Shown: positions 8,348 to 56,182, numbered from the stretch's first letter. The stretch is 64,000 bases of DNA from Candidatus Nomurabacteria bacterium (GCA_020632195.1 JACKGA010000001.1:45673-109672), one strand, 5' to 3'. Numbers and translations: made by a program. The notes: a model not told the origin generated them from the sequence alone.

Positions 8348-8764
8348 ATGAAAAAAGAAAACGAATTCTCAATCCCCAAAAGATCAGTATGGGCATTGAT
8401 ATGTACTCTTGTACTGGGAGTATTTATATACTTTCAAGCAAAGTATTACATAATTCCTGGGTTTCAGGAAATTTTTAATGAAAAAGACCCCACACTAGAA
8501 GCAGTCATGCGACTGATGTGGGTACCCATACTGGCGTACTGTATGATCTCTGCAGGTCTAGTATCCATCTTTAGTATATTTACGAAACTAAAAAAATATA
8601 AAGAGGAGGGGCTTATTGCTGGGCTTATTGCTGGGCTTATTGCTGGGCTTATTGGCGGGCTTACTTGGGGGCTTATTGGCGGGCTTACTTGGGGGCTTAT
8701 TGGCGGGCTTGTTATTGGGCTTGTTATTGGGCTTATTGCTGGGCTTATTGCTGAAAAAAATTAA
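8348..8764 (+). CDS. small membrane protein with a C-terminal (G-L-x-x)12 glycine-zipper repeat
   Basis: N-terminal transmembrane segments, then GLIAGLIAGLIAGLIGGLTWGLIGGLTWGLIGGLVIGLVIGLIAGLIA, encoded by twelve tandem 12-nt units. Confidence 0.55.
   Translation: MKKENEFSIPKRSVWALICTLVLGVFIYFQAKYYIIPGFQEIFNEKDPTLEAVMRLMWVPILAYCMISAGLVSIFSIFTKLKKYKEEGLIAGLIAGLIAGLIGGLTWGLIGGLTWGLIGGLVIGLVIGLIAGLIAEKN
8609..8752 (+). repeat. 12 x 12-nt in-frame tandem repeat (gggcttattgct and variants)
   Basis: Direct reading of the sequence: the units are gggcttattgct x3, gggcttattggc, gggcttacttgg, gggcttattggc, gggcttacttgg, gggcttattggc, gggcttgttatt x2 and gggcttattgct x2. Confidence 0.9.
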
Positions 8765-8854
8765 TGAGGGAAAAAAATATTGATGTGCCTTACGCTAATG
8801 TGTAGGGCACTTTTTCTTGCGCCAATCCTTCTTTCCATGTACACTCGCCTCCAT

Positions 8855-12274: not shown

Positions 12275-12323
12275 TGGATCCCAGATATTTTCTCCACGTT
12301 GCTTTGAAAATTCTGGGATGACA
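12275..12323. repeat. Hairpin repeat copy c (long-loop variant)
   Basis: tggatcccaga-[tattttctccacgttgctttgaaaat]-tctgggatgaca, a near-duplicate of copy b at 905..953. Confidence 0.65.
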
Positions 12324-12595
12324 CATCTGGGAGAAGAATTTAAAAACCATATCTTCCCTGTGTAGGCAGAGATCCCGTACAACATAGCCACGTGATATAA
12401 TCCAAGCATATGCATTCAAACCTAGCAAAAAATATTCAAGAGAAATATATTGAATATACAGCTGATTGGATTTTATTTGAAGAAATAAAAAAGAAACACA
12501 ATCTCTCAAGCTTAATCATTTGATTCCCTTGCAATCTCTCTCCCCACCCTTACAATACAACCATTACTATTTCTGATTAATTTCTCTATAATTTT

Positions 12596-27761: not shown

Positions 27762-27909
27762 GACACTTATTATACCTTGTGTACGATAGTTGGGGCAAGA
27801 AAAAACTATATTTAAAAATCCTCTCGATGCGACTCTTGTCTCGCCCCCTTGGGGACTGCATAAAAAAAGAGCCTCGAATCCTATCGGGTCCGAGACTACT
27901 TTTTATAGG

Positions 27910-27982
27910 TGCCCCCGGAAGGGCTCGAACCTTCGACCGTCAGCTTAAAAGGCTGCTGCTCTACCAGCTGAGCTACAAGGGC
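27910..27982 (-). tRNA. tRNA-Lys (anticodon TTT)
   Basis: The minus-strand sequence gcccttg ta gctcagctggtagagc a gcagc CTTTTAA gctga cggtc gaaggttcgagcccttc cgggggc a folds as a cloverleaf. The acceptor stem has two G-U pairs, there is one mismatch at positions 27-43, and the T-loop is TTCGAGC. Confidence 0.85.
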
Positions 27983-27996
27983 ATGAAATCTGGTGT

Positions 27997-28096
27997 ATAT
28001 CGCATATGTAGTTTCTTCATGGTTTGGACAGCCTTTTCTGAAAAGGCGTTCGTGTGTCCACCGGACACACTCACCTCTCCCAGTGAAACTACAAAA
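27997..28096. other. structured ~100-nt element flanked by 14-nt direct repeats (candidate small RNA or MITE-like insertion)
   Basis: The direct repeat gcatgaaatctggt occurs at 27981..27994 and 28098..28111. Inside, an outer stem tgtagtttc/gaaactaca encloses the hairpins gcctttt-ctg-aaaaggc and gtgtgtcc-acc-ggacacac. Confidence 0.35.
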
Positions 28097-28215
28097 GCAT
28101 GAAATCTGGTACCTCTATGAATTTTCTCAAACCAGATACTCATTATTTCTTTAGTAAAAAATATTACTAAAACACGCGTCACTATACCAACAAATATGAT
28201 AATATCAAGGCATCT

Positions 28216-33755: not shown

Positions 33756-33884
33756 TGTGCTTTCAAGCTCTGTTGTACGCCACAACACGAACCCTGCTCT
33801 GTGTGTCATCCCAGATAGAGCGACGAGATACGATGAGCGAAAGCCTGAGAGCCATCATTAGTTATATTTCTGACTTAGAATGAA

Positions 33885-33995
33885 GAACCCCGATGCAGAG
33901 CAGTCGGGGTATCTTTTTGGGTTCGCTCATTGCTCACTCTATGTTTTATTCCGAGGCAGAGCCTCGGGGAATATCACCGAGAAGATTGAAGATGA
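33885..33995. repeat. ~105-nt structured repeat, copy X1
   Basis: About 85 percent identical to 47655..47765. It contains the hairpins ccccga-tgcagagcag-tcgggg, ccgagg-cagag-cctcgg and ctcgg-ggaatatcac-cgag. Confidence 0.7.
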
Positions 33996-34017
33996 ACGTA
34001 CTCTAGAAAATTTAAAA

Positions 34018-34044
34018 TGGATCCCTGTTTTCGCAGGGATGACA
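34018..34044. repeat. Hairpin repeat copy e
   Basis: tggatccctg-ttttcg-cagggatgaca, directly downstream of the polA stop. Confidence 0.65.
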
Positions 34045-38195: not shown

Positions 38196-38310
38196 AAAAA
38201 AATTATATCATAGAAAAACAAAAAACCCTCCCGCCTGCCTTTGCCGACAAATAGGGGGTTTTACGTTTTTTTGGCATGGAGCCATAATAGCACTAATCCC
38301 CTCTCTGCTG

Positions 38311-38337
38311 TGTCATCCCCGCGTAGGCGGGGACCCA
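38311..38337. repeat. Hairpin repeat copy f
   Basis: tgtcatccccgc-gtag-gcggggaccca, in the divergent intergenic region. Confidence 0.6.
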
Positions 38338-38408
38338 TCTCAATGTTTCCACTATCTCCTTTTTTGTCAGTCTGAATTTATTTTAGGATATATGATAAAA
38401 TTAAACAC

Positions 38409-39113
38409 GTGTTTAAGCCTCTAGAAAATTTCCAATCCAACCGAAACCCGAAGGAGATTATTCTGCGTGCCCTCAAAGAATCAGAGCAATATAAGATTAC
38501 TCCAGAAGATAAAAATGAGTATGGGGAACTTTTGGCATACCCAAATGGCCCAAAATCAAATCTTGAAAACGAACTTCATTGGAAAATGGTACGAACTGAG
38601 GCTTTTAAGGAGTGGTTTGGAGACTGGCAAAATAAACCAGATGAAGCGAGTAGAGTTATAGATAATAATGGAGAACCACTTATCGTTTATCATTCCTCTC
38701 ATGATTCATTTGATGAGTTTGATCCTCAAAAAAGTCAGTATTTTTTGACGCTTGGAAAAGGTTCTTATTTTACCCCCGATCCCTCTTTATCAGAAATATA
38801 TGGAGATAAAAGATATACATGTTTTTTAAATATTAAAAATAATATTTACAAACAAAAAGAGCGCTCGGCTCTTCAGAATGGACTAAGGAATGTATATTAT
38901 TCTCTTATTCGACCTAAAGAATCGGGCTTCATCGAGCCACACGATGAAAGTGAAATTCCAGAGAGAAAACTTTTTGGAGAAGTAAGTCAAGTTTGTGTGC
39001 TTCATAAAGAAGATATTGCGATCATACCAAGTGACATTGAGCATCCTATGGAAAAATATCGCGAAAAGATTGATGGTCACTTTAGAGAAAATGGATCAAG
39101 TCCTAATCTCTAA
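38409..39113 (+). CDS. hypothetical protein with PARP-like (H-Y-E class) ADP-ribosyltransferase-fold motifs
   Basis: EPLIVYHSSHDSFDEF resembles the PARP hydrophobic-H-G-S strand, TLGKGSYFTPDPSLSEIYG resembles the GKGIYFA Tyr motif, and an acidic residue sits in FGEVSQVCVLHKED. The ORF is intact, has lower GC than its neighbours, and is bounded by a hairpin repeat and a terminator. Confidence 0.55.
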   Translation: MFKPLENFQSNRNPKEIILRALKESEQYKITPEDKNEYGELLAYPNGPKSNLENELHWKMVRTEAFKEWFGDWQNKPDEASRVIDNNGEPLIVYHSSHDSFDEFDPQKSQYFLTLGKGSYFTPDPSLSEIYGDKRYTCFLNIKNNIYKQKERSALQNGLRNVYYSLIRPKESGFIEPHDESEIPERKLFGEVSQVCVLHKEDIAIIPSDIEHPMEKYREKIDGHFRENGSSPNL

Positions 39114-42043: not shown

Positions 42044-42493
42044 TTACTCTTCAAAAATAATTTCTCGGTCATCTCCATGCTGAAGAATACGGATCTTTAA
42101 CCAATCTTTTTGGTCACGATCTGCTACCTGTTCGGGCCATTCAATCATGATAAGGTTTCGGGGGTCAGAAAAAATCTCATCGAACTTCAGGATTGCAAGC
42201 TCTTGCCATGAGGTCAGCCGGTATGCATCGATATGGATCAGTTGCTTCCAAGGAAAACGAGAGTTGGTAATTTGATAAAACTTCGCAAGAACAAATGTCG
42301 GGCTTATCACTGTTTCAGAAATATCGAGATGGTGTGCCAGCGTCTTGGTCAAAGCAGTTTTGCCAGCCCCTAAATTTCCTGACAGCGCACATACCGTCGC
42401 ACGATGGTGTTGCATAGAAGCTACAAGTTTTTCTAAAATCTCTCCAGCTATTCGATTGGTGTCATCGAGGGAATGTGACGTGTACGTTTGCAT
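42044..42493 (-). CDS. tsaE: tRNA threonylcarbamoyladenosine biosynthesis protein TsaE
   Basis: Walker A GNLGAGKTALTK, SPTFVL and HIDAYRL motifs of the YjeE family. Confidence 0.85.
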   Translation of the reverse strand: MQTYTSHSLDDTNRIAGEILEKLVASMQHHRATVCALSGNLGAGKTALTKTLAHHLDISETVISPTFVLAKFYQITNSRFPWKQLIHIDAYRLTSWQELAILKFDEIFSDPRNLIMIEWPEQVADRDQKDWLKIRILQHGDDREIIFEE

Positions 42494-42555: not shown

Positions 42556-45336
42556 TTAGTTCTGTGATCCATCAAACGGAGCTGGGCGATACACTGTATA
42601 GTCTGGTGTATTGACTGCCTGTGGGGCAGCAGCATGTGCTTGTGGAAGGTTAGCCGGTGCCTGAGCTACAGGAGCTGGGGCATACATTGGCTGTACTGGG
42701 TGCATAGGCTGCATAGGCGCTGCAGGCATCATGTATTGTGGTTGGTGATACATAGGAGCCTGTGCGTATGCTGGCGCATATGCGTATCCATATGATGATC
42801 CTTCGGCACGCTTACCCTGTACATAGAAGTAACGAGCAGCGAGGAGAAGGAGAGCGAGGAGAAGAAGCGTAAGCAACCATCCCCATACACTCGTAAAGAA
42901 TCCTGAGAGAAATGCTGATGCAGATCCGAATCCGATAGCAGCATCATATACTTGGTCGAAGTCGAATTCGATAGCGGTGTCCTGAATACCATTACCGACA
43001 CCGTCACCACCGAGGTTTGCTTCTACGACGACTGCCTGTCCAATATTCGCACCTGGGCGTACACGAACAGTAATCATCATATCTCCCTTTTCTTCTGATT
43101 CAATATCACCAAGATCAATGATCACTGAATGTTCTGTTTTACCTGTATACGTACCACGAGTTGTTGAAAGAAATTCAAGTTCTTTTGCAAGTTTTACATC
43201 AAGGATTGCATCTTCGAAGTCTTGCTTACAGAGGTTTTCCCATTCAACTTCATATACCAATGTCTGTCCGCGGGTTACTCCTTCAACATTGTTGGTAAGG
43301 TTCAAAGCAATACATCCGAGACCAGAACCTGCTTCAAGAGTATTTGAGGTAATCGTTGTAGCAGTATTGGTGTTTACACGAGTAACGGTAGAGGTATTTG
43401 ATGAAACCGTAGAGATCACACGTCCAGGAGTACGGAATGATTCAAAGTCTCCGTATACTGGGATGCCGTTACAGTATCCGACAGCTCGTACATAGTAGGT
43501 CACTCCTGGAGTCAATCCAGAAATTGATTCACGCATGATTCCACTATTGTTTCCACGTGTGACAATACCTGTCGAAACATTCATATTTGAAGTACTGGTT
43601 CCTATCAAGAATTGAGTAGAGAAAGCGCTACAACCATTTGCATTGTATCCAGCGTTCAAAACAGCTGAAGTACCAGTCACTGATGATTCAGGAAGGGTTA
43701 CCACGATAGGATTTACTACTGAGTCAACACCATTGTTTCCTGGCTGGTCGATAGTCACAACTTGGTAGTCAGTATCAGTAACAAATTTTTCTACATCACC
43801 ACATTCCAATGTATCGTCATTATTTTCATCTTCGTACTCAACACAGATACGGAAGTAGTATGTTTCATTCGTATCAAGTCCAGTAACCGTTTTGCGGTAA
43901 TCTTCGTCACCATCAAGGTCGCTGTCAACTCTTACTTTACGGATGTCTTGCCCATCGTTGTCAACATCGCTATAGGTGTCGAAATCATTATCAACATCTT
44001 CAATGTCATTCTTGTTCTGTCCGTATACAAAGAATACAACACCGTTATCAAAGTCATTCATGTCTACTGAACCATTAAGTTTTGCAGAGTCTTCATCAAC
44101 ATCCTCGGCATCATCAGTATCAGCTTTTGGTTCATCATTATTATTGTGAGAACCAGAACTTACATCTACGGATACGTTATCACTTGCTGAAAGACCATAG
44201 TTGTTGGTACAAGTAATTTCAAAATTAGTATCTTCATTAAGTGAATAGGTGTCACTATTGCTTGATGTATAAATACCTGTTTTTCCATCGAAGTAACTCA
44301 AGTTTGGAGTTGCATCATAGATACAGTGATCAGCATTAGTAATTGTCCATGTCACTACTACATTGTCTCCTTCCTGAATAGTACTATCGTTCACAGTAAT
44401 ATCTACCGTTGGCGCAGTGCCCTGATTTCCTCCATTGCTTGTTACGGTAAGCTGGTGAGTATCCTGTACTGGCGTACCATCAAGTCCGATACAATTTGCA
44501 GTAAAGCTATAGGTACCAGCAGAAAGAACATATGAAGATGAGCCAGTAGTTCCAGAGTTGTTGTTCCATTGAGAAACAGTAGGAGAAGAAGTGAAAGTAC
44601 AAGTCGAAACATCATTAGAATTCCAAGAAACATTTGCAGAAGTACCTGCAGGCACTGTAGATGTCCCAGAGACATTTACTGATGGGTTGTAGGTAGGAGC
44701 AGGCGTGTCATTACCGATCTTGAAAATAGCAGTAATGTATACGTAATCACCAATACCGATAGGCTGATTGATATTTTGTCCTGAGCTACCAAACATAGCA
44801 GTGCTGGTAGAGAATGTCCCACTATCTACAGCATTCCCATTATCATAATATACTTCATGATATCGAATATAACTCACAGTCTGGTCTATTCCAGAAATAT
44901 CAAAACCAACTCCGTCATATTCTGTAGAACCTCCATTGTCAGAAAGAGTAACTCCAAAGTCTACTCCTGACTGTGCTGTAGAAGAATTAGGGTTAAAACC
45001 GGTCACCTTAAAGTTTGGACTGGTCATTACTTGGTTACCAATATTCTTCAGTTTGATACGTAGGTTGATAGTATCTCCGGCATTGGCAGTAATATCATTT
45101 TTATTCCAACACAATTCGTATTGGGAATTTGATACAACACCGTATCCACTCGTGTGGTTACCGATTTGGGCCAGAGCACATTCATTAGATGAGTTACCGG
45201 CATCTTGGTTATAACCCAAAGAGCCATTGGCAAACTGTCCCGCTGCAAATGCAGTCGAAACAGAAACCATAGCAATCGCAACGACAGCAAAGGCTGCAAC
45301 AGCGATATATGAGATTGTTTTCATAACGTTTTTCAT
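42556..45336 (-). CDS. large cell-surface protein (926 aa) with signal peptide, repeated beta-rich domains, C-terminal transmembrane anchor and Tyr/Pro/Ala-rich cytoplasmic tail
   Basis: N-terminal MKNVMKTISYIAVAAFAVVAIAMVSVSTAFA and multiple T/S/N-rich Ig-like segments. The C-terminal transmembrane segment FFTSVWGWLLTLLLLALLLLAA is followed by YGYAYAPAYAQAPMYHQPQYMMPAAPMQPMHPVQPMYAPAP. Confidence 0.7.
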   Translation of the reverse strand: MKNVMKTISYIAVAAFAVVAIAMVSVSTAFAAGQFANGSLGYNQDAGNSSNECALAQIGNHTSGYGVVSNSQYELCWNKNDITANAGDTINLRIKLKNIGNQVMTSPNFKVTGFNPNSSTAQSGVDFGVTLSDNGGSTEYDGVGFDISGIDQTVSYIRYHEVYYDNGNAVDSGTFSTSTAMFGSSGQNINQPIGIGDYVYITAIFKIGNDTPAPTYNPSVNVSGTSTVPAGTSANVSWNSNDVSTCTFTSSPTVSQWNNNSGTTGSSSYVLSAGTYSFTANCIGLDGTPVQDTHQLTVTSNGGNQGTAPTVDITVNDSTIQEGDNVVVTWTITNADHCIYDATPNLSYFDGKTGIYTSSNSDTYSLNEDTNFEITCTNNYGLSASDNVSVDVSSGSHNNNDEPKADTDDAEDVDEDSAKLNGSVDMNDFDNGVVFFVYGQNKNDIEDVDNDFDTYSDVDNDGQDIRKVRVDSDLDGDEDYRKTVTGLDTNETYYFRICVEYEDENNDDTLECGDVEKFVTDTDYQVVTIDQPGNNGVDSVVNPIVVTLPESSVTGTSAVLNAGYNANGCSAFSTQFLIGTSTSNMNVSTGIVTRGNNSGIMRESISGLTPGVTYYVRAVGYCNGIPVYGDFESFRTPGRVISTVSSNTSTVTRVNTNTATTITSNTLEAGSGLGCIALNLTNNVEGVTRGQTLVYEVEWENLCKQDFEDAILDVKLAKELEFLSTTRGTYTGKTEHSVIIDLGDIESEEKGDMMITVRVRPGANIGQAVVVEANLGGDGVGNGIQDTAIEFDFDQVYDAAIGFGSASAFLSGFFTSVWGWLLTLLLLALLLLAARYFYVQGKRAEGSSYGYAYAPAYAQAPMYHQPQYMMPAAPMQPMHPVQPMYAPAPVAQAPANLPQAHAAAPQAVNTPDYTVYRPAPFDGSQN

Positions 45337-45837
45337 AATAATGTATAAAAATAATAATTTGGAATAATGATGTTAATTAAACGACTTATTTCTTAATTAA
45401 CACAGTAATTATAGCACAATGGTATAAAAATGTCAAGCATTTAGCAAGACCCTCACCGGCCGAGTTGGCCAGCGTTATACGATGCTCTGATTCCTGTATC
45501 AACTAAACGTCTCCCTCACAACATAGTGGAGAGTGGTGTATATACGTCAATTATGCGCTTTTCTTTCGTAAAGATATGAGAGAATAGCGTAGTATCGCTT
45601 ATTTATAACGAATACAACCACATTTTCTTACAGAACGCAAGTGTTTTTCTTTATTTGTTAAAAAATTTTCCTCGCATCCGCGAGAACATTCCCCTTTCGT
45701 TCGAGATTCGATCAGAAAAATGATCAAATGCCGAATAAAGAGTGGGATCACCAACAGGGATCCCAACTTTAAAACTTTTTACATAACCCAGGGTATCTAC
45801 TCTCATATGATATGATTTCGATACCCTATAAATAACC

Positions 45838-46698
45838 CTACTCCCCAAAGCTTCCGGAAACCCCGCCAGCGCTAGAGCCGGCGCCCTGGCTTCCGGAAAC
45901 CCCACCATTTTCTCCTGAACCATATGATCCAGGTACTCCACCACCATTTGTTGGCGTGTAAATAGTAGGTTGAGGGTTCGAACCACCTTGCGGTACGTAT
46001 ACCGTGTTGGTGGTTTTTCCCCAATCTTTGGAGATTAGTCCTGAGACTACTCCTCCAACAATTGGGCCGACCCAAGATCCAGCGGCAGCCCATTTCTGGG
46101 CTTTGTTGGCGCCTTGTGGTTGTGTTTGTACATAAATCACTTGCGGCTGAGTCGACTGGGTTTCAGGTGTTTTTTTGGCCTGAAACAGATCTATCTTTGG
46201 AAGCGGTTTGATATCGCTTCCGCAGCCACAATCCGCTGGGGCTGGAGCTGGGGTTTCAGTAAATCTTTTTCCCAAATTGATACAGAAATTTGTACCAATC
46301 TTGAAAGAAACCTTGCTCCAGCTTTCATCTTGCGAAAGCCGGTATTCAAAAATTCTTATACCGGCATTTAGATAGCCGGCAGAAAAAATTATTCCGTCCT
46401 TAACCCCATGGTTAAGGATTTTTTCCCCAGCCTGTACGCTTCTGATGCGTACATTTTGAGAAATATTTGGCGACCCTACTGCAGCCACCAATCTACTCCA
46501 TTCCGCCTGTCCAATTTCTTGGATCAGTGCAGTCTGGGTAGACTGCGGCATGCCACCTACCCATGCTTTAAAAGCGCGAATAGTGTCACCATTGTTTGCA
46601 TTCAGCAAATCCCAGCCCCATGGGTTAAATTCCCCAGAAGCTTTAGAATTTAAGAAAAAAAACAATGTACATACGATTAAAAAATTTATTTTTTTCAT
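45838..46698 (-). CDS. secreted Gly-rich hypothetical protein, paralog A
   Basis: Signal peptide. It shares FKAW, AGYLNAGIR, KIGTNFCINLGKR and a C-terminal GGGVPGS...G-rich tail with the 48685..49752 gene. Confidence 0.6.
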   Translation of the reverse strand: MKKINFLIVCTLFFFLNSKASGEFNPWGWDLLNANNGDTIRAFKAWVGGMPQSTQTALIQEIGQAEWSRLVAAVGSPNISQNVRIRSVQAGEKILNHGVKDGIIFSAGYLNAGIRIFEYRLSQDESWSKVSFKIGTNFCINLGKRFTETPAPAPADCGCGSDIKPLPKIDLFQAKKTPETQSTQPQVIYVQTQPQGANKAQKWAAAGSWVGPIVGGVVSGLISKDWGKTTNTVYVPQGGSNPQPTIYTPTNGGGVPGSYGSGENGGVSGSQGAGSSAGGVSGSFGE

Positions 46699-46953
46699 GA
46701 TTTTATGTTTTTGTGCCCATTTCTGAGCGATTTTTAGAATAAAAACATGACCCCTCGCGGATCATGTCCGGCGAATTGGGGTAAAAAACTACTTTTTTAA
46801 CCTTGATTCTCCACTATTATAACATACTCTTTGACAAAAAGCAAGTCTTATTGTATAAATATCTCTAGAAAACCCAAAAATCAACCTGGTTTCTTGTCGT
46901 CTTGAGCTTTACCATCGCTCGTTCTGGTGTCTCATACACTGATAATACGAGCT

Positions 46954-46978
46954 TTGTCCTCCTGAACGTGTTTCAGAA
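46954..46978. repeat. Hairpin repeat copy k1 (degenerate) / first unit of a 2-copy direct repeat
   Basis: ttgtcctcctgaa-cgtgt-ttcagaat. Its 25-nt core is identical to 47006..47030. Confidence 0.55.
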
Positions 46979-47005
46979 TTTAAGTATCCTCTCATCATCT
47001 ACTCT

Positions 47006-47034
47006 TTGTCCTCCTGAACGTGTTTCAGGATCCA
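47006..47034. repeat. Hairpin repeat copy k2
   Basis: ttgtcctcctgaa-cgtgt-ttcaggatcca. Confidence 0.6.
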
Positions 47035-47124
47035 TGGTACTACAGATATTCTCGTGTCTATTGGGAATTCAGCTCATGGTATGAAATATCTTTTCTATCT
47101 CTTTGTTGAACTCTCTTGGATCTC

Positions 47125-47151
47125 TGGATCCCGATTGTCATCGGGATGACA
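47125..47151. repeat. Hairpin repeat copy g
   Basis: tggatcccga-ttgtca-tcgggatgaca. Confidence 0.65.
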
Positions 47152-47205
47152 AGCATTTGTTTGTTTTTAATTGGGTGTTTATAATCCTTCTATTATATTT
47201 ATGTT

Positions 47206-47614
47206 TGTCATCCTGACGCATGTCAGGATCCATACAACTCCAAAGATAATTTGATATACTAGGAATATTACCCATTATTGAAGACTGTGTAATATGAATC
47301 ATAGAGAATACTATGTATACATTATGTGCAACAAAGCTCGTGGCACCTTGTATATAGGCGTTACAAACAATATAGAAGTGCGCGTGCAACAACATCAACA
47401 AGGAAAAGGCAGTGTCTTTACTGCAAAATACCAACTCTATAGACTTGTATATTATGAATCCTTTCAATACATTGATCAGGCAATTATGAGAGAGAAGCAG
47501 CTTAAAAATTGGAGAAGACAATGGAAGATTAATCTTATCGAAGAATATAATCCAATATGGCGAGATCTCAGCTATGAATGGTTTTATGGATCCTGAAATA
47601 AATTCAGGATGACA
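47206..47614 (+). mobile_element. candidate compact mobile cassette: GIY-YIG nuclease gene flanked by 27-bp inverted hairpin repeats
   Basis: The left end is tgtcatcctgacgcatgtcaggatcca (47206..47232). The right end is tggatcctgaaataaattcaggatgaca (47587..47614). Its reverse complement matches the left end except in the loop. The ORF's stop codon lies inside the right repeat. Confidence 0.45.
47294..47596 (+). CDS. GIY-YIG nuclease superfamily protein (100 aa; COG2827/UPF0213-like)
   Basis: MNHREYYVYIMCNKARGTLYIGVTNNIEVRVQQHQQGKG...: GIY-YIG core (YVYIM..GTLYIGVTNN), conserved Arg, His-Gln-x-Gly and a distal Glu/Asn. The terminal codons gga tcc tga sit inside the hairpin repeat. Confidence 0.8.
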   Translation: MNHREYYVYIMCNKARGTLYIGVTNNIEVRVQQHQQGKGSVFTAKYQLYRLVYYESFQYIDQAIMREKQLKNWRRQWKINLIEEYNPIWRDLSYEWFYGS

Positions 47615-47654
47615 AATGAGAAGAATAATGTGTATTCCAAAATATACAGTAAGA

Positions 47655-47765
47655 CTGGAGAAACAACCTCGATGCAAAGCAGTCGAGGTATATTATTGAG
47701 TTCTCTACTTGCTCACTTCTTGTTTTATTCCGAGGCAGAGACTCGAGGAATATCATCGAGAAGAT
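47655..47765. repeat. ~105-nt structured repeat, copy X2
   Basis: Aligns base-for-base with 33885..33995, with compensatory stem changes (cctcga...tcgagg versus ccccga...tcgggg). Confidence 0.7.
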
Positions 47766-47796
47766 TAAACATAAGCTAAAAGCATAAAGTAAAAAA

Positions 47797-47830
47797 TAAC
47801 CAACAAAAAACACCCAGCAACATGTGGGTG
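47797..47830 (-). terminator. Rho-independent terminator downstream of the Tyr/Asn-rich secreted protein gene
   Basis: Minus strand: acaccca-catgttgc-tgggtgt followed by tttttgtt. Confidence 0.55.
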
Positions 47831-47856
47831 TATTTGGCAGGTAAGAAATGACCAAA

Positions 47857-48432
47857 CTATTTTAGCGAAATCCACTCGAGCGGACACCACTGCCTATTCT
47901 GCTGATACCAGCGATCATAGGTGGGACGCGTATTGAATGCAAAACTCGCCTGTAAAAAAAATTTTGCCCCGTTTACCACAATGGTGGCCTTAGGGTTAGA
48001 TCCTCCCATATAGTAGCCCTGATTACCATAGTAGTAATGATACGGGCTGTAATATCGGTAGCCATACTGTTGGTTGTAGTATGGATACACAATATACGGT
48101 GCAACAGGCACTACATTCGTATTACTATTGTTATTGTTGTTGTAATAGTAATAGTTATTTGTAGTTGTGCTTGGAGTCACTGCTTGATTCCCAGGATTAT
48201 AATAAACATCATCATAATGTTTATTATCTCCATGTGAATCGTCAGAAGACTCTTCATCTTCTCGCCCCGGGCAATCCCAACAATCCTCTACAGAATAATC
48301 ATCCACAGTGGGAGGATTAGTCGTAGGAATAGATATCGTAGATGCTACTGGAATTCCATTAGCATTATACGAAACCTGTGCTTGGGCAATTCCTGCGCAC
48401 AGTAAAAATAATACAAAAAATATATATCTCAT
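47857..48432 (-). CDS. secreted Tyr/Asn-rich low-complexity protein (191 aa)
   Basis: Signal peptide MRYIFFVLFLLCAGIAQAQ, then YYYYNNNNNSN and YYSPYHYYYGNQGYY tracts. Confidence 0.5.
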   Translation of the reverse strand: MRYIFFVLFLLCAGIAQAQVSYNANGIPVASTISIPTTNPPTVDDYSVEDCWDCPGREDEESSDDSHGDNKHYDDVYYNPGNQAVTPSTTTNNYYYYNNNNNSNTNVVPVAPYIVYPYYNQQYGYRYYSPYHYYYGNQGYYMGGSNPKATIVVNGAKFFLQASFAFNTRPTYDRWYQQNRQWCPLEWISLK

Positions 48433-48563
48433 GTCTCATTGGTTTTTAGTTGTTAAAATAAAAAATATCATGAATATTAAACCATACTTTGATTAAAAAA
48501 GCAAGTTTTTAGAAAGGTCCGACCATCGATATCCCTAGAACTAGGTTTCGTATGGGGCGATTC

Positions 48564-48590
48564 TGGATCCCCGTTTTCACGGGGATGACA
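48564..48590. repeat. Hairpin repeat copy j
   Basis: tggatccccg-ttttca-cggggatgaca. Confidence 0.65.
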
Positions 48591-48684
48591 GGGGTTTGGG
48601 TTTACTATAAGAATCAAGTTTTTGCACAAACAAAAATACAGGCCCCAAAAGGTTCCTGTATTTTAGATGTAATTGTCAAAAATT

Positions 48685-49752
48685 TTACTGAATATGTACC
48701 TTTACTTTTGGCAACATATTTTGAAAAAATTTCCCGTCACCAATGGTTGTTGTAATCCCAACAGTAAAACCTACTGTTGGTTTATACACCTGGTTTTGGC
48801 TTATATTTATCTCTTCCGCTTGGGGTTCGATAAACATAATTGATGTTGTGTTCGTTGGCGTCATTGTGGGTTGGGTTGTTGCATTTATTGGTGCTCCGTC
48901 CCATTTTCCACCGCCAAAACTACCTGGAGTACCACCAGTTTCATCAGCAAAAGTTCCGCCATCCTCCGATCCTGGAACTCCTCCGCCTCCAGTATTGACC
49001 ACAACAGGCGGTTGTGGGTCCCCTGTAGGAGTGGTTGTTGTAGTAGTAGATTTTGATTTGCCTTTTATTTGGGTCAAACCATAAATACCAGCGCCAAGGA
49101 CTCCAGCCCCGCCAATTCCCGCAAAAGTATAGCCGATGATTTTTCCGGCTTTGCCTTTTGTCTTGTAATTGGTTGTCCCATTATTGCCACCTTGGTCAAA
49201 ATCCCACGACTCTACCTTGATCTCAGGTTCATCGGTGGAATAATCTGCCGGTGGATTAACAATACTGGGCTTGTTATTACCATTACAGCAACAACAGTTG
49301 TTCGGCTGTTGATTATACTCATACCCATTCGGGTTTGAGGGCTGTTTTGGTGATTGTGGAATATCCTTTTTTAAAGGATTAAAACACCAATTGTCGCCCA
49401 GTTTTGCAATTGGGATCGCAACGGTGTTGTTATCCATCGCCCACCAAATACACTCTGTCCCAGCAATAAGCTGAGACGAGTATGTATAACCTTCTTCCCT
49501 GATACCGTGATTCAGGTATCCTGCCGGAGCAGGTCCTACACTGAATACACCACGGCCGGCTTTGATATCATCCCAGGCTGGGCCTAGGATTTTGCGATAT
49601 CCAGCATCAACTTTAGCTGGGCACATTTTCGCCCAAGCTTTGAATTCGGTAATCGGGTCTTTCCCCGGGGTTTTTCCCCTTTTGTAAAATTCCTGTGCTG
49701 ACACTGATGCGAAAGCCAAGAATGTAATCATTAGAAAAAATATATTTTTCAT
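48685..49752 (-). CDS. secreted Gly-rich hypothetical protein, paralog B
   Basis: Signal peptide. The motifs FKAW, AGYLNHGIR, KLGDNWCFNPLKK and GGGGVPGS are shared with paralog A. It also has a CCCC cluster. Confidence 0.6.
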   Translation of the reverse strand: MKNIFFLMITFLAFASVSAQEFYKRGKTPGKDPITEFKAWAKMCPAKVDAGYRKILGPAWDDIKAGRGVFSVGPAPAGYLNHGIREEGYTYSSQLIAGTECIWWAMDNNTVAIPIAKLGDNWCFNPLKKDIPQSPKQPSNPNGYEYNQQPNNCCCCNGNNKPSIVNPPADYSTDEPEIKVESWDFDQGGNNGTTNYKTKGKAGKIIGYTFAGIGGAGVLGAGIYGLTQIKGKSKSTTTTTTPTGDPQPPVVVNTGGGGVPGSEDGGTFADETGGTPGSFGGGKWDGAPINATTQPTMTPTNTTSIMFIEPQAEEINISQNQVYKPTVGFTVGITTTIGDGKFFQNMLPKVKVHIQ

Positions 49753-49789
49753 TTGAATCTCCTTTTTTGTTTAAAATTTAAAAAATTGT

Positions 49790-50383
49790 TTAGTTTTCGC
49801 GAATAGTTTCGCCTTGGATTGTGGTTTCTTTGAGATTTTTTTGTTTCTCTTTAGAATCCACTTCGTGCTGGGCGACCCAATTCAGAGTAATGGCCCCTAA
49901 TTTGATAAAGGTAACTTTTTGGGTTTCTTTATCATAGTAGCCGTAGAATTTATACTCCTTGGTTGAGGAGTATGCACTGGGCTTCCAGGCAAGAATAATC
50001 TCTTCCCCTTCATCTTCAGCCCACAAAATCAACAGTAATCCATCTTGTTCACCATAGAAAACGCCAGAAGTCCCAGCGCATAGCGCAACTGAGGTTACCT
50101 CTTGTTTTTTCTCCTCTACATACACACCGTCAACGTATTTTTTTGCTCCGGGTGTAGTTTTGGTGATCTTAAAGCCAATATTGGCTGACGGAATGTACTC
50201 GATTTTATTCAAGTATCCGTCATGGAAAGTTTTGTCCGCCACTGTGAATGCACGGTAGCCCGGCATTTTGGCATACTTGTTGGGCGGGCATTTCTTTTGG
50301 TCGCCCGTCACTTGAGTACTTTTACAATTTGTTAAAGAAAACAAAATGAAAGACACGAATGAAAATAATACTAATTTTTTCAT
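49790..50383 (-). CDS. hypothetical lipoprotein
   Basis: MKKLVLFSFVSFILFSLTNC: a signal peptide with an L-T-N-C lipobox. The start is taken at this ATG and not at the upstream track start. Confidence 0.55.
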   Translation of the reverse strand: MKKLVLFSFVSFILFSLTNCKSTQVTGDQKKCPPNKYAKMPGYRAFTVADKTFHDGYLNKIEYIPSANIGFKITKTTPGAKKYVDGVYVEEKKQEVTSVALCAGTSGVFYGEQDGLLLILWAEDEGEEIILAWKPSAYSSTKEYKFYGYYDKETQKVTFIKLGAITLNWVAQHEVDSKEKQKNLKETTIQGETIREN

Positions 50384-50566
50384 GATAATAATTTTTTTTA
50401 GTTTACAAATAAATAAAAAGCCCGACACCCCGGGCAACGGGATGTTGAGTTGTTTTTTATTTTTTAACTCATTTGCGCAGAGTATAACATAGCATGCTTG
50501 ACTTGTAAAGTCTTTTTTGCTATAATTGTGGAGAAATAAAATTTAAAAAACAAAAAAATTATTATT

Positions 50567-51055
50567 ATGAAAAAAGTATTTATTATATTAGGCGGATTAT
50601 TTTTATTAACTTTTTCATCTTGTCAAAAAGATGAGGATACTCGCCCAACACAGTTGGACGAGGAGTATATTAATAAAAATGTTTTTTTCAGTATTAGTAA
50701 AAATACTGATGAAACAAATAATGATCCAAACGTACCACTACCCCAGTGGCTAGGTACCGCAGTGGTGTGGGATATGGCACAAGAACCAAAGACTCTTCGC
50801 CTGACTGGCGATCTTTGGTATCCAACCGAGACAGGAGAAGCTGTCTACGAGTTGGATGTAATCTTGTATCCAGAAGATTTTTCATCGTCTAAAAACCATT
50901 TGAAATGGACGAAGACGAATGATGATTTAAATCCCAAAGCCTATCTAGACGGCTCAAATCGTCTACAAGGAAGCTGGGAAGATTTCCAGGCTGTAATTAG
51001 CTGGAAAAATGGTAGCCAAAAAATTAAAAATTTAAAGCTAGAAGTTCTAAACTAG
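50567..51055 (+). CDS. hypothetical lipoprotein
   Basis: MKKVFIILGGLFLLTFSSC: a signal peptide with an F-S-S-C lipobox. Low GC. Confidence 0.55.
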   Translation: MKKVFIILGGLFLLTFSSCQKDEDTRPTQLDEEYINKNVFFSISKNTDETNNDPNVPLPQWLGTAVVWDMAQEPKTLRLTGDLWYPTETGEAVYELDVILYPEDFSSSKNHLKWTKTNDDLNPKAYLDGSNRLQGSWEDFQAVISWKNGSQKIKNLKLEVLN

Positions 51056-51147: not shown

Positions 51148-53307
51148 TTACGCCTTTTTTAATCGTTCGATATTTTTGCGTATCATTTCCAGCTGCTGTG
51201 CAACGCCTTCGCTTGGCTTATCCTGCTGATGCTCACGCAGATCAGCAAGGTCGTTCATGAGAAGATCAATCTCAGCCTCGACGCGTTGCTCATTGGTCTG
51301 CTGGAGAAAAAGATCATGCAGGGGGTTTTTCTTGAGCAACTCAATGATGGTACTTTGCACTTGGGTAATTTTTTGGGCGATGCCTTGTTCGGGATTATTC
51401 CGCTGGTGGTCTTCGAGCATTTTGAGATAATCAACGAGAAGATCAAGCTCCTGCGCGGGGAGAGATTTTTCGGGGTCGGAACTCTTTGGCGGAGCAACTG
51501 CTGGAAGAGGGCTTGCTACTGTGGGGGCGTCTTCTTTGTGGGCAGAGAGGTCATCCTCAGTAGTCGCCGAGCTCTGGTGTGTCACGCCTTCTATGCCGAG
51601 CTCTTCGGCAACGTCTGCGGTAAGATCAACCACGCGCTCGACTTCTTCGTAGGATGTTTTCCCTTGTAAAATTTTGACTACACCATCTTCTGCCATCGTG
51701 AGGATGCCCTGATGCTGAGCTGCACGCTTGACCTGTCGATCCGAAGGATTTTTATCCAAGAGATCCTTGATTACATCATCGATCAAAATCGCTTCGAAAA
51801 CACCCATACGACCTTTGTAGCCTGATTCTGATTTTTCATCAGGGATGGGTTCATAGACCCACATTTCGTCCATATCGTAGGAAAGACCAAAGCGCCCGGG
51901 AATATCCTTGTCGTTGCTTTGGGCTTTTTTCAAAACAGCACGCATGACTTTTTCTTGTTCGGGAGTTGCTTTTACTTTCTTTTTCGCATCGGTAAGGTTA
52001 CGCACCAAACGCTGAGAAAGGGCAACACTCATCGATTGCCCGAGGACTGATGGATTGATTTTGAGACCGAGCAAACGTGGCACTGCTCCTGACGCGTCGT
52101 TGGTGTGAAGCGTAGAAAGGACCAAGTGTCCCGTTTGTGATGCCTGCATAGCAGCAAGGGCGGTTTCATTGTCGCGGATCTCTCCGACAAGAATAATATC
52201 AGGGTCCTGACGCATCGCGGCACGCAACCCCGCCTCAAAATCATAGTGCTGCGCATGATCTACCTGGGTCTGATGAATACCTTCGAGGTGATATTCGATT
52301 GGGTCTTCAATCGTAAGGATCTTGATCTCGGGGTTATAGACGTACTTGAGCAATGAATAGAGCGTGGTCGTTTTCCCCGAACCTGTCGGCCCCGTATTGA
52401 GGATAAGTCCGTGAGGCTTTTCTACTTCGCGCTTAAGAATATCCAAAAGATACGGCTCGATACCGAGTTGCTCAAGCCCTACATTGATACCCGCTGGGTC
52501 GAGAATACGCATCACGACACCCTCGCCGTATGGGCCTGGCACGGTCGAAACACGAATCTCAATTTCGACATTATTAAAATCGATCGTAAAACGTCCATCT
52601 TGGGCGCTTTTGGTTAGGTTGAGTTTCATTCCTGACAAAATCTTGATACGCGACATGATCTGCTTGTATGTGCGATGATCAAAATGCAAAATATCTTGAA
52701 GCATACCGTCCTGACGATACCGCAAACGCACTTCCTCATCCTGAGGTTCGATATGTACATCGGAAGATTTGGTCGCAATCGCCGCTCCCATGATAATCTC
52801 CATCAATCGTGATGTTCGTTTGTTTTCCTCTTCATCGGCAACCGTGTCAAAAAGTTTTTTGATATCATCATTGGTCTTTACCTGATCGACAATGGCTTGC
52901 AACGCGTCTTGAGAAATATCAATAAAGCTCCCATGTGAGCTGTGGGTCATGCGCAGATCATCATATCGCGACCATGCTTTTTCGAGGCTATTTTGTGAAA
53001 CGAGATAGAGGGTAACTTTATAGCCTGCCTTCGTTAATTCTTGAACCAGTCCATCAAGTTCATCAGATGACTCATGCAGCGTGGCAAGGGAAAGATCTTG
53101 TCCCACCAAGTGAAATCCTGCAACCGACAGCGCTTTGGCACGATCTTCATCGACCAGCGCCAATGCATCGGTGGATAGCGACATACCATCGAGATTTACA
53201 TAAGGCATGCTGATTTTTTGTGCACGCAATTGTACCGTTTCTTCTTCCTCTTTGATACGCAAAGATTTGAGGTCTTTTTGTAGTTGTGTGTCGTCGAATT
53301 GAAGCAT
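51148..53307 (-). CDS. pilB: type IV pilus / type II secretion assembly ATPase (PilB/GspE family) with ~170-aa C-terminal extension
   Basis: GspE N-terminal domain, Walker A LILNTGPTGSGKTTTLYSLL, Asp box, Walker B and His box. The start is taken at the internal ATG (MLQFDD). The C-terminal extension contains two copies of a ~30-aa helical repeat. Confidence 0.9.
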   Translation of the reverse strand: MLQFDDTQLQKDLKSLRIKEEEETVQLRAQKISMPYVNLDGMSLSTDALALVDEDRAKALSVAGFHLVGQDLSLATLHESSDELDGLVQELTKAGYKVTLYLVSQNSLEKAWSRYDDLRMTHSSHGSFIDISQDALQAIVDQVKTNDDIKKLFDTVADEEENKRTSRLMEIIMGAAIATKSSDVHIEPQDEEVRLRYRQDGMLQDILHFDHRTYKQIMSRIKILSGMKLNLTKSAQDGRFTIDFNNVEIEIRVSTVPGPYGEGVVMRILDPAGINVGLEQLGIEPYLLDILKREVEKPHGLILNTGPTGSGKTTTLYSLLKYVYNPEIKILTIEDPIEYHLEGIHQTQVDHAQHYDFEAGLRAAMRQDPDIILVGEIRDNETALAAMQASQTGHLVLSTLHTNDASGAVPRLLGLKINPSVLGQSMSVALSQRLVRNLTDAKKKVKATPEQEKVMRAVLKKAQSNDKDIPGRFGLSYDMDEMWVYEPIPDEKSESGYKGRMGVFEAILIDDVIKDLLDKNPSDRQVKRAAQHQGILTMAEDGVVKILQGKTSYEEVERVVDLTADVAEELGIEGVTHQSSATTEDDLSAHKEDAPTVASPLPAVAPPKSSDPEKSLPAQELDLLVDYLKMLEDHQRNNPEQGIAQKITQVQSTIIELLKKNPLHDLFLQQTNEQRVEAEIDLLMNDLADLREHQQDKPSEGVAQQLEMIRKNIERLKKA

Positions 53308-53481
53308 GAAAAAGATTGGCAACCAGAAAAAAATTGGCTCGTATCCTCTAGTAGTATACCCGCAGAAATACAAAATAACCAGACACTTCTATAGAGAAAA
53401 GAGTAACTATCGAGACAACAAAAAAACCCTTACGGGTATTTTGATATATCTTCTGCTTGACCGCATAAATCTCCTAGTAGT

Positions 53482-55030: not shown

Positions 55031-55243
55031 ACGAATGACGTCAGGCTCTTTTGAAAAAAACAAAAGAAAGAATGACAAAAAGTGAATAATTCAAAAAATA
55101 TAAAATTGGAAGAACAGTCTTCAGGTGATCTTCATAAGTATATGTGTGAGATCTTTTCAAAAACTATACCACCTGTAAATATGTGTTACAATACATGTGC
55201 GATTAGATATATACAGGTTATTCACAGCCTTTTACCTTTTTCC

Positions 55244-56182
55244 ATGACTAAAACACACCAAACACTTGACCAAGAACTACGCCCTACCGCATGGGAGGAT
55301 TATATTGGGCAAGAGCTCATCAAAAAAAACCTACATATTCTTATCACGGCGGCCGGACAACGCAACCAACCGCCCGAGCACATGCTTTTTTATGGCCCGC
55401 CAGGACTGGGCAAGACAACACTTGCTCACCTTATCGCACACGAAACAGGCACGGCAATGAAAATTACCTCTGGCCCTGCTATTGAAAAAGTAGGAGATTT
55501 GGCAAGTATTCTGACAAACCTCAACACAGGAGATATTCTTTTTATCGACGAAATTCATCGATTGAATAAAATGGTAGAAGAGGTACTGTATCCTGCTATG
55601 GAATCGGGAGTATTGGATATTATTATCGGCAAAGGGCCATCTGCTAGGACCGTCCAGCTCGACTTACCGCCCTTTACCCTTATTGCCGCAACCACGCGCA
55701 TTGCGCTTCTGTCGGCGCCACTACGTAGTCGCTTTTCTGGTGGAGTACATCGTCTAGAAATGTATTCTGATGAAGAAATCCAAAAAATCGCCCAGCGCTC
55801 TGCCGACATTCTTGGCATGACACCAGATGCCGATGCGCTGATCGAGATTGCCAAACGAGCACGCTCGACGCCACGTACTGCCAACTATTTCCTCAAACGT
55901 ATTCGTGACTATGCGCAAGTACACGACACGCCAGTAACGCATCAGGTCGTCATTGATGCGCTAGAGCTCCTCGGTATTGATGAACAAGGACTCACTACGA
56001 TCGACCGCATGTATCTCGAGGTGTTGCGCGACAAATTTGGCGGCGGACCTACCGGGCTCAAAACACTTGCCGCAGCGATCAACGAGGATGAGAATACGCT
56101 CGAAGATGTCATTGAGCCGTATCTCCTGCGATTGGGCTTAATCGAAAAAACATCGCGCGGAAGGATGATAGTAGAAAAATAA
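55244..56182 (+). CDS. ruvB: Holliday junction branch migration ATPase RuvB
   Basis: LRPTAWEDYIGQE, Walker A GPPGLGKTTLA, Walker B ILFIDEIHRL, sensor motifs and a winged-helix C-terminus. The start is taken at the internal ATG (MTKTHQTL). Confidence 0.95.
   Translation: MTKTHQTLDQELRPTAWEDYIGQELIKKNLHILITAAGQRNQPPEHMLFYGPPGLGKTTLAHLIAHETGTAMKITSGPAIEKVGDLASILTNLNTGDILFIDEIHRLNKMVEEVLYPAMESGVLDIIIGKGPSARTVQLDLPPFTLIAATTRIALLSAPLRSRFSGGVHRLEMYSDEEIQKIAQRSADILGMTPDADALIEIAKRARSTPRTANYFLKRIRDYAQVHDTPVTHQVVIDALELLGIDEQGLTTIDRMYLEVLRDKFGGGPTGLKTLAAAINEDENTLEDVIEPYLLRLGLIEKTSRGRMIVEK

Follow-up and report, generated by a model that had tools for sequence, protein, structure and literature searches.

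Introduction

The VARTIG loci of Thermococcales are hypervariable gene modules that sit beside a large surface protein with immunoglobulin (Ig) domains; their function is unassigned, and a role in conflict or recognition has been proposed (Makarova et al. 2021, PMC8416519). In these loci the large protein is itself a variable partner, and recombination is evident (PMC8416519). Here, we describe a locus at 45.8-51.1 kb of a 64,000-nucleotide (nt) stretch of chromosomal DNA from an uncultured, ultra-small bacterium of the Candidatus Nomurabacteria (Patescibacteria, or candidate phyla radiation, CPR). We call this whole stretch the window, and all coordinates are window positions. The locus holds five small genes, among them the paralogs A and B, between the gene for a PilB-like ATPase and that for a 926-amino-acid (aa) protein. 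It resembles VARTIG in that a large multi-domain extracytoplasmic protein stands beside small genes that change identity between related genomes, and the comparison is a conceptual one only.

To our knowledge, the way in which CPR bacteria recognize and attach to partner cells is largely obscure beyond a few cultivated Saccharibacteria. Orphan exported envelope proteins are common in CPR genomes. A preliminary description of this DNA had taken the genes for an accessory island of secreted proteins and, from the paralogy of A and B together with the density of mobile elements around them, for a variable surface-protein locus. Our analysis points to a different history: the five genes probably form a chromosomal, vertically inherited and fast-evolving slot for exported envelope proteins, a lineage-specific cell-surface module.

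Results

Gene order is conserved while the slot genes diverge

Four of the five slot genes lie on the minus strand: paralog A (45838-46698; 286 aa; NCBI name H6776_00495), a Tyr/Asn-rich, low-complexity exported protein that we call YN (47857-48432; 191 aa), paralog B (48685-49752; 355 aa; NCBI name H6776_00510), and lipoprotein 1 (lipo1; 49790-50437 as an open reading frame (ORF), 49790-50383 from its ATG; 197 aa). Lipoprotein 2 (lipo2; 50567-51055; 162 aa) lies on the plus strand and is transcribed divergently. An ORF listing recovered every reading frame that the preliminary description had named, each in its place, and the GIY-YIG cassette, the hairpin repeats and YN do indeed lie between A and B.

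We called signal peptides and lipoboxes by eye and from hydropathy only. Judged in this way, A and B begin with signal-like segments, in line with the signal peptides claimed earlier, and all five slot proteins look exported or lipid-anchored. The lipobox pattern ([LVI][ASTVI][GAS]C at the end of the signal peptide) was found, with lipo2 carrying FSSC followed by QKDED in the window and FSSC, LTSC or LVSC across loci. Lipo1 has LTNC in the window, which is atypical at position -1, and IAGC and LYGC in its orthologs. The earlier claim of two lipoproteins stands as to both ORFs and their lipoboxes, but the start of lipo1 needs revision: it is most likely the ATG at 50383 (MKKLVLFSF...LTNC) and not the TTG at 50437.

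Relatives of the locus were gathered in part by a scan with an alignment of the 926-aa protein and by a DNA-pattern scan for the conserved promoter of its gene. On a 15.5-kb ENA contig (L008), the order is RuvB (minus strand), then, further along, a T2SSE ATPase, a 169-aa lipoprotein (minus strand), a 201-aa lipoprotein, a B-like, a YN-like and an A-like protein, a 1010-aa protein and TsaE. This matches the window as read on the minus strand (RuvB, PilB, lipo2, lipo1, B, YN, A, 926-aa protein, TsaE). A 7.9-kb Logan contig (L005) keeps the same order from PilB through the large protein; L001 and L002 (ENA/JGI) and L003 have B, YN, A and the large protein, and L007 has a family member in the A position and then the large protein. 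The gene of the large protein lies directly downstream of A in the relatives that have A, and lipo2 has positional orthologs in both L008 and L005. Among L008, L005 and L001/L002, L008 alone reaches the outer flanks, which in the window are RuvB (55082-56182), beyond PilB, and TsaE (42044-42493), beyond the 926-aa gene. The wider neighborhood is a housekeeping one, with RuvB, YebC, RuvC, tyrosyl-tRNA synthetase (TyrRS), PolA and TsaE.

Starts that lack a Shine-Dalgarno sequence and the lipoprotein with 'SC-QKDED' led us to consider contamination. We rejected a chimeric assembly or Bacteroidota contamination, because these junctions are found again in assemblies from ENA, JGI and Logan.

Across this conserved order, the interior diverges much faster than its borders. 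Between the window and L008, the flanking proteins are 80% (PilB), 63% (large protein) and 59% (TsaE) identical, and between the window and L005 the values are 70% for the C-terminal part of PilB and 62% for the large protein, TsaE not being covered there. By contrast, identities to L008 and L005, respectively, are 47% and 34% for A, 33% and 31% for YN, 46% and 36% for B, 66% and 27% for lipo1, and 31% and 42% (partial) for lipo2. The five inner genes thus span 27-66% identity, compared with 59-80% for the flanks. YN illustrates the trend: its positional orthologs, which diverge fast, are 162 aa long in L008 and 178 aa in L005, and they have in common with it the motif YD(D/N)VYY(N/T)PG and a C-terminal end with Trp and Cys.

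The content of the slot itself also changes. The L035 locus, which we found through the conserved promoter of the large gene, contains a diverged B-like gene, whose hydrophobic segment matches that of B at E=3e-5, an unrelated 195-aa exported protein and the large gene; no A-type gene is present in L035. We found no support for the 195-aa protein being a diverged YN or A. Still further away, L010, a metagenome-assembled genome (MAG) of Campbellbacteria, and L027 retain RuvB (minus strand), PilB, the large protein and TsaE, with 3.3-3.7 kb between PilB and the large protein. In both, this interval encodes one lipoprotein and two proteins, both of which run from a signal peptide through a hydrophobic glycine-zipper segment to a tail of low complexity, rich in Gly, Pro and Asp. 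As remote homologs of A and B these two proteins were rejected, since hhalign gave a probability of 18% that came from the signal peptides only. The synteny of the flanks thus extends as far as Campbellbacteria, conserved flanks enclosing an interior that diverges faster or is exchanged, and slot content changes with phylogenetic distance.

The GIY-YIG and hairpin DNA is a late intergenic insertion

The 100-aa ORF at 47294-47596 (plus strand) belongs to the GIY-YIG family: its score for PF01541, 64.2 bits (E=1.4e-17), exceeds the gathering cut-off of 22.6, and weak matches to homing endonucleases were seen among PHROGs. Around it, direct and hairpin repeats lie at 46952-46979, 47004-47035, 47126-47151, 47206-47231 and 47588-47614, including a 28-nt direct repeat at 46952/47004. 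When we aligned the spacer between YN and A with those of the relatives, this whole block of ~0.93 kb (~46929-47856) was confined to the window. A solitary hairpin repeat, GGATCC...GGGGATGACA (48565-48590, plus strand), lies in the spacer between B and YN, which is 252 nt long in the window versus 121 nt in L008 and 109 nt in L005, that is ~130 nt longer here. The native promoter region of A is untouched by the insertion, and ~200 nt upstream of A are conserved.

This arrangement bears directly on the earlier reading as a horizontally acquired or mobile accessory island, in which the secreted-protein genes would be cargo of, or mobilized by, the GIY-YIG gene and the repeats and would vary by presence and absence. 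Such a reading draws on the GIY-YIG ORF and the at least six hairpin or direct repeats packed between A and B, on the extreme rarity of the A/B family, and on the one relative (L035) that has no A. Against these stands the recurrence of the same gene order, in independent assemblies of relatives and within a housekeeping backbone, in loci that have no GIY-YIG gene (L008, L005, L001, L002, L003 and L007), while the insertion is limited to ~0.93 kb of spacer and the flanks are syntenic out to Campbellbacteria. Neither a tRNA gene nor an integrase borders the locus, the only tRNAs of the window lying at 19.6 and 27.9 kb. GC content across the region (0.37-0.43) stays within the range of the window, the hairpins are dispersed over the window and not specific to the locus, and the A/B family has no relatives in phage records, plasmid records or IMG/VR viral contigs. 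An island is therefore very unlikely. Because relatives keep the gene order without the GIY-YIG gene, and because the insertion falls within a spacer, the mobile DNA is a late passenger and not the cause of the locus. It entered between genes and left both genes and promoters intact; the link drawn earlier between the density of mobile elements and the variability of the locus is not supported, the spacer block being the only part specific to the window.

Hairpins of the type GGATCC-stem-loop-GATGACA recur at 348-373, 905-963, 12275-12333, 34019-34044, 38308-38338, 47126-47614 and 48565-48590, and the window holds a single GIY-YIG gene despite this dispersal. The 136 nt downstream of that gene (47662-47797) are repeated with 78% identity at 33883-34018, beside another hairpin; this copy looks like a gene-less element resembling a miniature inverted-repeat transposable element (MITE).

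A and B are ancient paralogs

BLASTP aligned A and B at 25% identity (E=0.003), colinear across their full length. We compared this resemblance with composition-preserving shuffles. The mature N-domains reached a Smith-Waterman score of 71 versus 27±4.6 for the shuffles (z=9.6), the C-terminal halves gave z=9.0, and the whole mature proteins gave z=16, with 0 of 2000 shuffles attaining the real score. Because the shuffles never reach the real scores, A and B are homologous beyond composition, and the paralogy proposed in the preliminary description is borne out. Orthologs of A and B in other assemblies keep as invariant a G, N-H-G, K-x-G-x-N-x-C-x-N and a Cys cluster, and likewise PQP and the tail repeats GG(V/T)xG(G/S)(Y/F/W).

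The contrary possibility, that the resemblance is compositional or an artefact of gene calling and that the ORFs are not real genes, is extremely improbable. The marginal pairwise BLASTP value and the low complexity of the tails speak for it. Yet the shuffles fail to match the real scores for the non-repetitive N-domain alone, full-length orthologs of both ORFs occur at 34-60% identity in other assemblies, and the N-domain folds confidently in the structure model.

One of the blocks earlier thought to be common to A and B, AGYLN-A/H-GIR, turned out to be misaligned. AGYLNHGIR of B aligns with EKILNHGVK of A, which bears the invariant N-H-G; AGYLNAGIR of A lies 14 residues downstream. We place the two strings out of homologous register because the spacing to K-[IL]-G-x-N-x-C-x-N is conserved (36 versus 37 residues) and because the family alignments agree.

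At the DNA level, the longest word common to A and B measures 11 nt, which rules out recent gene conversion between them. In a neighbor-joining tree of the N-domains, the B types (window, L008 and L005) form one group, the A-position proteins of L005 and L007 a second, and a derived A type (window, P0003 and L008) a third, with 99% bootstrap support. Since each genome in the tree carries both positions, the duplication is older than the divergence of these lineages: A and B are ancient paralogs that arose before the known genomes split.

The A/B family is rare and clade-restricted

We searched all 1.84 billion (1.84e9) representative proteins with a profile made from A, B and two orthologs; at E<=1e-3 it matched six clusters (A, P0004, B, P0005, P0006 and P0007). 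Only P0003 and P0008 came in addition from word-indexed searches, which covered 5.8 billion (5.8e9) clusters. P0003 (60% identity) and P0004 (41%) are orthologs of A, and P0005 and P0008, together with the partial copy in L035, are orthologs of B. The window contains no third copy, and none of 24 GTDB Patescibacteria loci (0/24) has a member.

Pfam has no match at E<=1 for any of the eight family members, nor any match for YN, lipo1, lipo2 or the 926-aa protein. NCBIfam yielded nothing except a match to the signal peptide of lipo2 far below threshold (E 0.0099; 16.6 bits versus a cut-off of 50), and PHROGs and PADLOC models matched none of A, B, YN, lipo1, lipo2 and the 926-aa protein. Among PDB sequences, the best value for the A/B profile was E 0.44, which is not significant. 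The A/B family is a previously undescribed, very rare and clade-restricted protein family.

Paralogs A and B combine a small folded domain with a glycine zipper and a disordered tail

The two paralogs have the same succession of parts. In A, the signal peptide is followed by an α/β N-domain of ~120 aa (residues ~27-142), a DCGC/Pro linker, a hydrophobic glycine-zipper segment (residues 204-222; GSWVGPIVGGVVS) and a disordered tail with three GGV(P/S)GS(Y/Q/F) repeats. In B, the N-domain (residues ~20-130) follows the signal peptide and leads into a CCCC/Pro linker, the hydrophobic glycine-zipper segment (205-227) and a Gly-rich tail. The B types of the window, L008 and L035 also share the motif KPxVGFxxGxxTTIGxGKF, which in B lies within a C-terminal extension of ~75 aa.

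AlphaFold2 models were built on the eight-sequence family alignment. For the N-domain of B (~115 aa, α/β), the model reaches a predicted local distance difference test (pLDDT) value of 83.6 and a predicted template modelling (pTM) score of 0.77, with three helices followed by six strands. The N-domain of A (pLDDT 70-85) has the same layout of helices and then six strands, plus extra N-terminal helices; its residues 143-286 have pLDDT <35, which indicates disorder. Foldseek searches returned nothing significant: the full-length model of A against PDB gave E 0.38 at best, the N-domain of B against PDB E 0.32 with template modelling (TM) scores <=0.27, and the same domain against BFVD E 0.09 with a TM score of 0.32. 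As modeled, the N-domain would be a new small domain, predicted with confidence and without a detected relative.

The hydrophobic segment is based on GxxxGxxxG, has a Kyte-Doolittle value of 1.5-1.65, and is present in A, P0003, all B types, P0007 and L035. Basic residues flank it on either side; in the distant analogues they lie mainly on the N side. Together with the Tyr (13.6%) and Asn (11%) content of YN, this segment invites the reading that the slot encodes a self-assembling surface matrix or contact weapon, in which A and B would contribute glycine zippers and YN an aromatic, Asn-rich partner, the products forming surface aggregates or membrane-inserting oligomers in the manner of functional amyloids or of CdzC/CdzD, the glycine-zipper bacteriocins of Caulobacter. 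The paralog pair may recall the major/minor subunit pairs of curli and Cdz. GxxxGxxxG zippers in most members and in the distant positional analogues would fit such a role, as would the long, disordered tails rich in Gly and aromatic residues. We nevertheless regard such a role as quite unlikely: searches gave no match to the curlin, Fap, chaplin or glycine-zipper Pfam families, two A-position orthologs have no zipper, and neither an immunity-like gene nor a dedicated exporter was identified.

The slot lies between a PilB-like ATPase and a large multi-domain protein

On one side, the slot is bordered by the PilB-like T2SSE ATPase (51148-53373, minus strand; 741 aa), which has a C-terminal extension. 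This extension of ~150 aa, with the motif LLVDYLKxLE, is kept even in the distant loci (L010, 3378-5546; L027, 2216-4360). No other pilus genes were found near the ATPase, and a regular-expression search of all six-frame ORFs of the window for the prepilin leader G|(F/M)T(L/I)(I/V)E returned nothing.

With such a neighbor, the slot proteins might be accessory parts of a pilus-like or secretion machine that the ATPase drives, serving to assemble or anchor a filament or the 926-aa protein. The T2SSE ATPase adjoins the slot in every locus that reaches that far, L010 and L027 included, without other pil genes nearby, and two paralogous membrane-associated proteins with one or more lipoproteins would be a familiar make-up for such a machine. 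However, the eight family members have no Pfam match at E<=1 to PilN, PilO or PilP (PF05137 / PF04350 / PF04351) or to other models, the Foldseek matches in PDB include no PilN/PilO structures or pilus proteins, and the window has no prepilin motif. A and B would open with a signal peptide that looks cleavable, fold their N-terminal part into a globular domain and carry their hydrophobic segment centrally, whereas PilN and PilO have an N-terminal anchor. Parts of a machine, moreover, are not normally lost to detection while their ATPase stays similar (~665-673 phmmer bits in L010 and L027). This reading, which argues from analogy, we consider unlikely.

The 926-aa protein (42556-45336, minus strand) borders the other side. 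Its signal peptide is followed by β-rich modules in repeated copies and a central domain that is acidic, and then by a C-terminal transmembrane helix and a Pro-rich tail. The acidic central module (residues ~390-525; DMNDFDNG...FFVYGQ...TYYFRICVEY) is the part common to many Patescibacteria lineages, including MAGs labelled Campbell-, Kaiser- and Saccharibacteria, and no Pfam model covers it. Homologs of the 926-aa protein also occur in contigs binned as Bacteroidota, L011 and L030 (a GTDB MAG labelled Crocinitomicaceae, JBLIKX01); TsaE is encoded on L011 as well, and L030 shows a weak GIY-YIG match. These two are probably binning contamination from CPR.

Transcription signals point to several units

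Promoters and terminators were predicted by consensus scans only. The gene of the 926-aa protein has a perfect sigma-70-type promoter, TTGACA-17-TATAAT with TG (45408-45436, minus strand). The intergenic DNA in which it lies (window 45337-45837, minus strand; L008 11196-11604; L005 4630-5033; L007 1035-1394) is conserved better than the proteins on either side: the promoter TTGACA-17-TGCTATAAT and a leader of ~50 nt are near-identical between the window and L008, although the proteins are only 41-63% identical. The same region contains further conserved blocks, TGTAAGAAAATGTGGTTnTATnCGTTATAA and CTTTATTCGGnATTTGATCA...TGATCGAATnTCGAA, which could be a small RNA or a regulatory leader; Rfam gave no match for the region at E<=1.

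Upstream of A (46743-46844, minus strand), a predicted promoter TTGCTT-17-TGTTATAAT (extended -10; 46816-46844) precedes a leader hairpin that resembles a terminator (46743-46769). L008 keeps both the promoter block and the hairpin, and L005 the promoter block. A similar terminator-like hairpin lies in the leader of lipo1 (50420-50445, minus strand). Both have U-runs and fall between the predicted promoter and the start codon, which suggests attenuation-type or stabilizing leaders. Terminator-like hairpins on the minus strand also follow A (45669-45686) and YN (47810-47831), the latter inside the insertion block.

Divergent promoters separate lipo1 from lipo2. Lipo1 and B are probably co-transcribed, since only 37 nt separate them and AAGGAG precedes the ATG of B. 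From these predictions, lipo1-B, YN, A and the large gene would probably be separate transcription units, and the cluster would not be one tight operon.

Other features of the window

Outside the locus, a 36-nt segment at 27959-27994, which overlaps the end of the tRNA-Lys gene (27908-27982), is repeated with 81% identity 116 nt away at 28075-28110 and may be what is left of an integration site. Inside an ORF (8348-8764), ~12-15 units of GGGCTTATTGCT and its variants form a tandem array of 12-nt period (8597-8774), which encodes a repeat of the GLIA/GLLG type. The product of 38409-39113 (plus strand), ~3.5 kb beyond TsaE, has a precomputed match to the ADP-ribosyltransferase family ART-PolyVal (PF18760) in the annotation of L004.

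Discussion

The conserved gene order, the fast divergence of five inner genes between flanks that change more slowly, and the replacement of slot content in distant relatives lead us to regard the locus as a vertically inherited slot whose products probably serve at the cell envelope. In the mechanism we propose, Sec would translocate the slot proteins, the glycine-zipper segment would hold the B type at the membrane, and lipid would hold the lipoproteins. Once at the cell surface, they would work together with the large, adhesin-like 926-aa protein encoded next to them and perhaps with the ATPase as well. Diversifying or relaxed selection on exposed parts, involved in contact with host or partner cells or in escape from phages, would account for how fast they diverge. 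Of the variable surface-protein locus proposed in the preliminary description, the variability holds, as the inner genes diverge fast and the content changes; surface exposure we infer from sequence.

Several observations weigh against this reading. We infer the function, and both localization and topology follow from hydropathy judged by eye. As a transmembrane helix, the hydrophobic segment would be a borderline case, given its Kyte-Doolittle value; it is missing from the A-position proteins of L008 and L005, and its basic flanks on both sides fit poorly with a simple N-out/C-in topology. The genes have predicted promoters and terminators of their own, so that a common function is read from their conserved adjacency alone. 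The fast divergence could reflect relaxed constraint instead of diversifying selection, the distances being beyond the range of the ratio of nonsynonymous to synonymous substitution rates (dN/dS). Finally, L005 comes from the same sample as the window and could be a second locus of the same genome.

A bolder proposal is that the PilB-like ATPase, the fast-evolving glycine-zipper proteins and lipoproteins, and the giant, membrane-anchored adhesin together make up an undescribed host-contact apparatus of episymbionts, from Nomurabacteria to Campbellbacteria-like lineages. We give it only a slim chance. If it were true, the slot proteins, including the α/β N-domain of A and B, would determine specificity for the partner or would insert themselves into its envelope, with their deployment powered by the ATPase. 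Under our preferred reading as an envelope-protein slot, the locus supplies candidate determinants of specificity or contact. It keeps a fixed chromosomal position, with a PilB-type ATPase on one side and a giant surface protein on the other; the exported proteins that occupy it change until sequence comparison no longer recognizes them, and yet they retain one architecture. It may just as well be a further set of orphan envelope proteins that evolve quickly. For annotation, the lesson is that GIY-YIG/hairpin elements here are intergenic passengers and not markers of an island.

Comparison with known systems places the parts of the locus as follows. Small stand-alone GIY-YIG proteins (PF01541) with flanking palindromic repeats resemble the 100-aa ORF bracketed by GGATCC...GATGACA hairpins; here, however, the ORF is a passenger of a spacer outside the conserved protein cluster, and its mobility is putative. 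With the glycine-zipper families (Gly-zipper_Omp PF13488, Gly-zipper_YMGG PF13441 and Rick_17kDa_Anti PF05433) and with CdzC/CdzD of Caulobacter, the A/B family has in common a short GxxxGxxxG segment in an exported protein. The eight members do not belong to PF13488, PF13441 or PF05433, with no match to a Pfam hidden Markov model (HMM) at E<=1; unlike those families, A and B add a globular N-domain of ~115 aa and a disordered tail of 60-130 aa, and the zipper is not universal. The PilN/PilO paralog pair with the lipoprotein PilP offers a likeness of layout, two paralogous membrane-associated proteins and one or more lipoproteins beside a PilB-type ATPase. In sequence and fold the two sets are not similar, the order of anchor and globular domain is reversed, and evolution is far faster than expected for such a machine.

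With respect to VARTIG, no evidence of recombination or gene shuffling was found at this locus, and no Ig or toxin domains were detected. Rather, the large protein, variable in VARTIG, is here conserved (61-63% identity in relatives), the small genes that vary lie upstream of the large gene, and the host is a CPR bacterium, not an archaeon.

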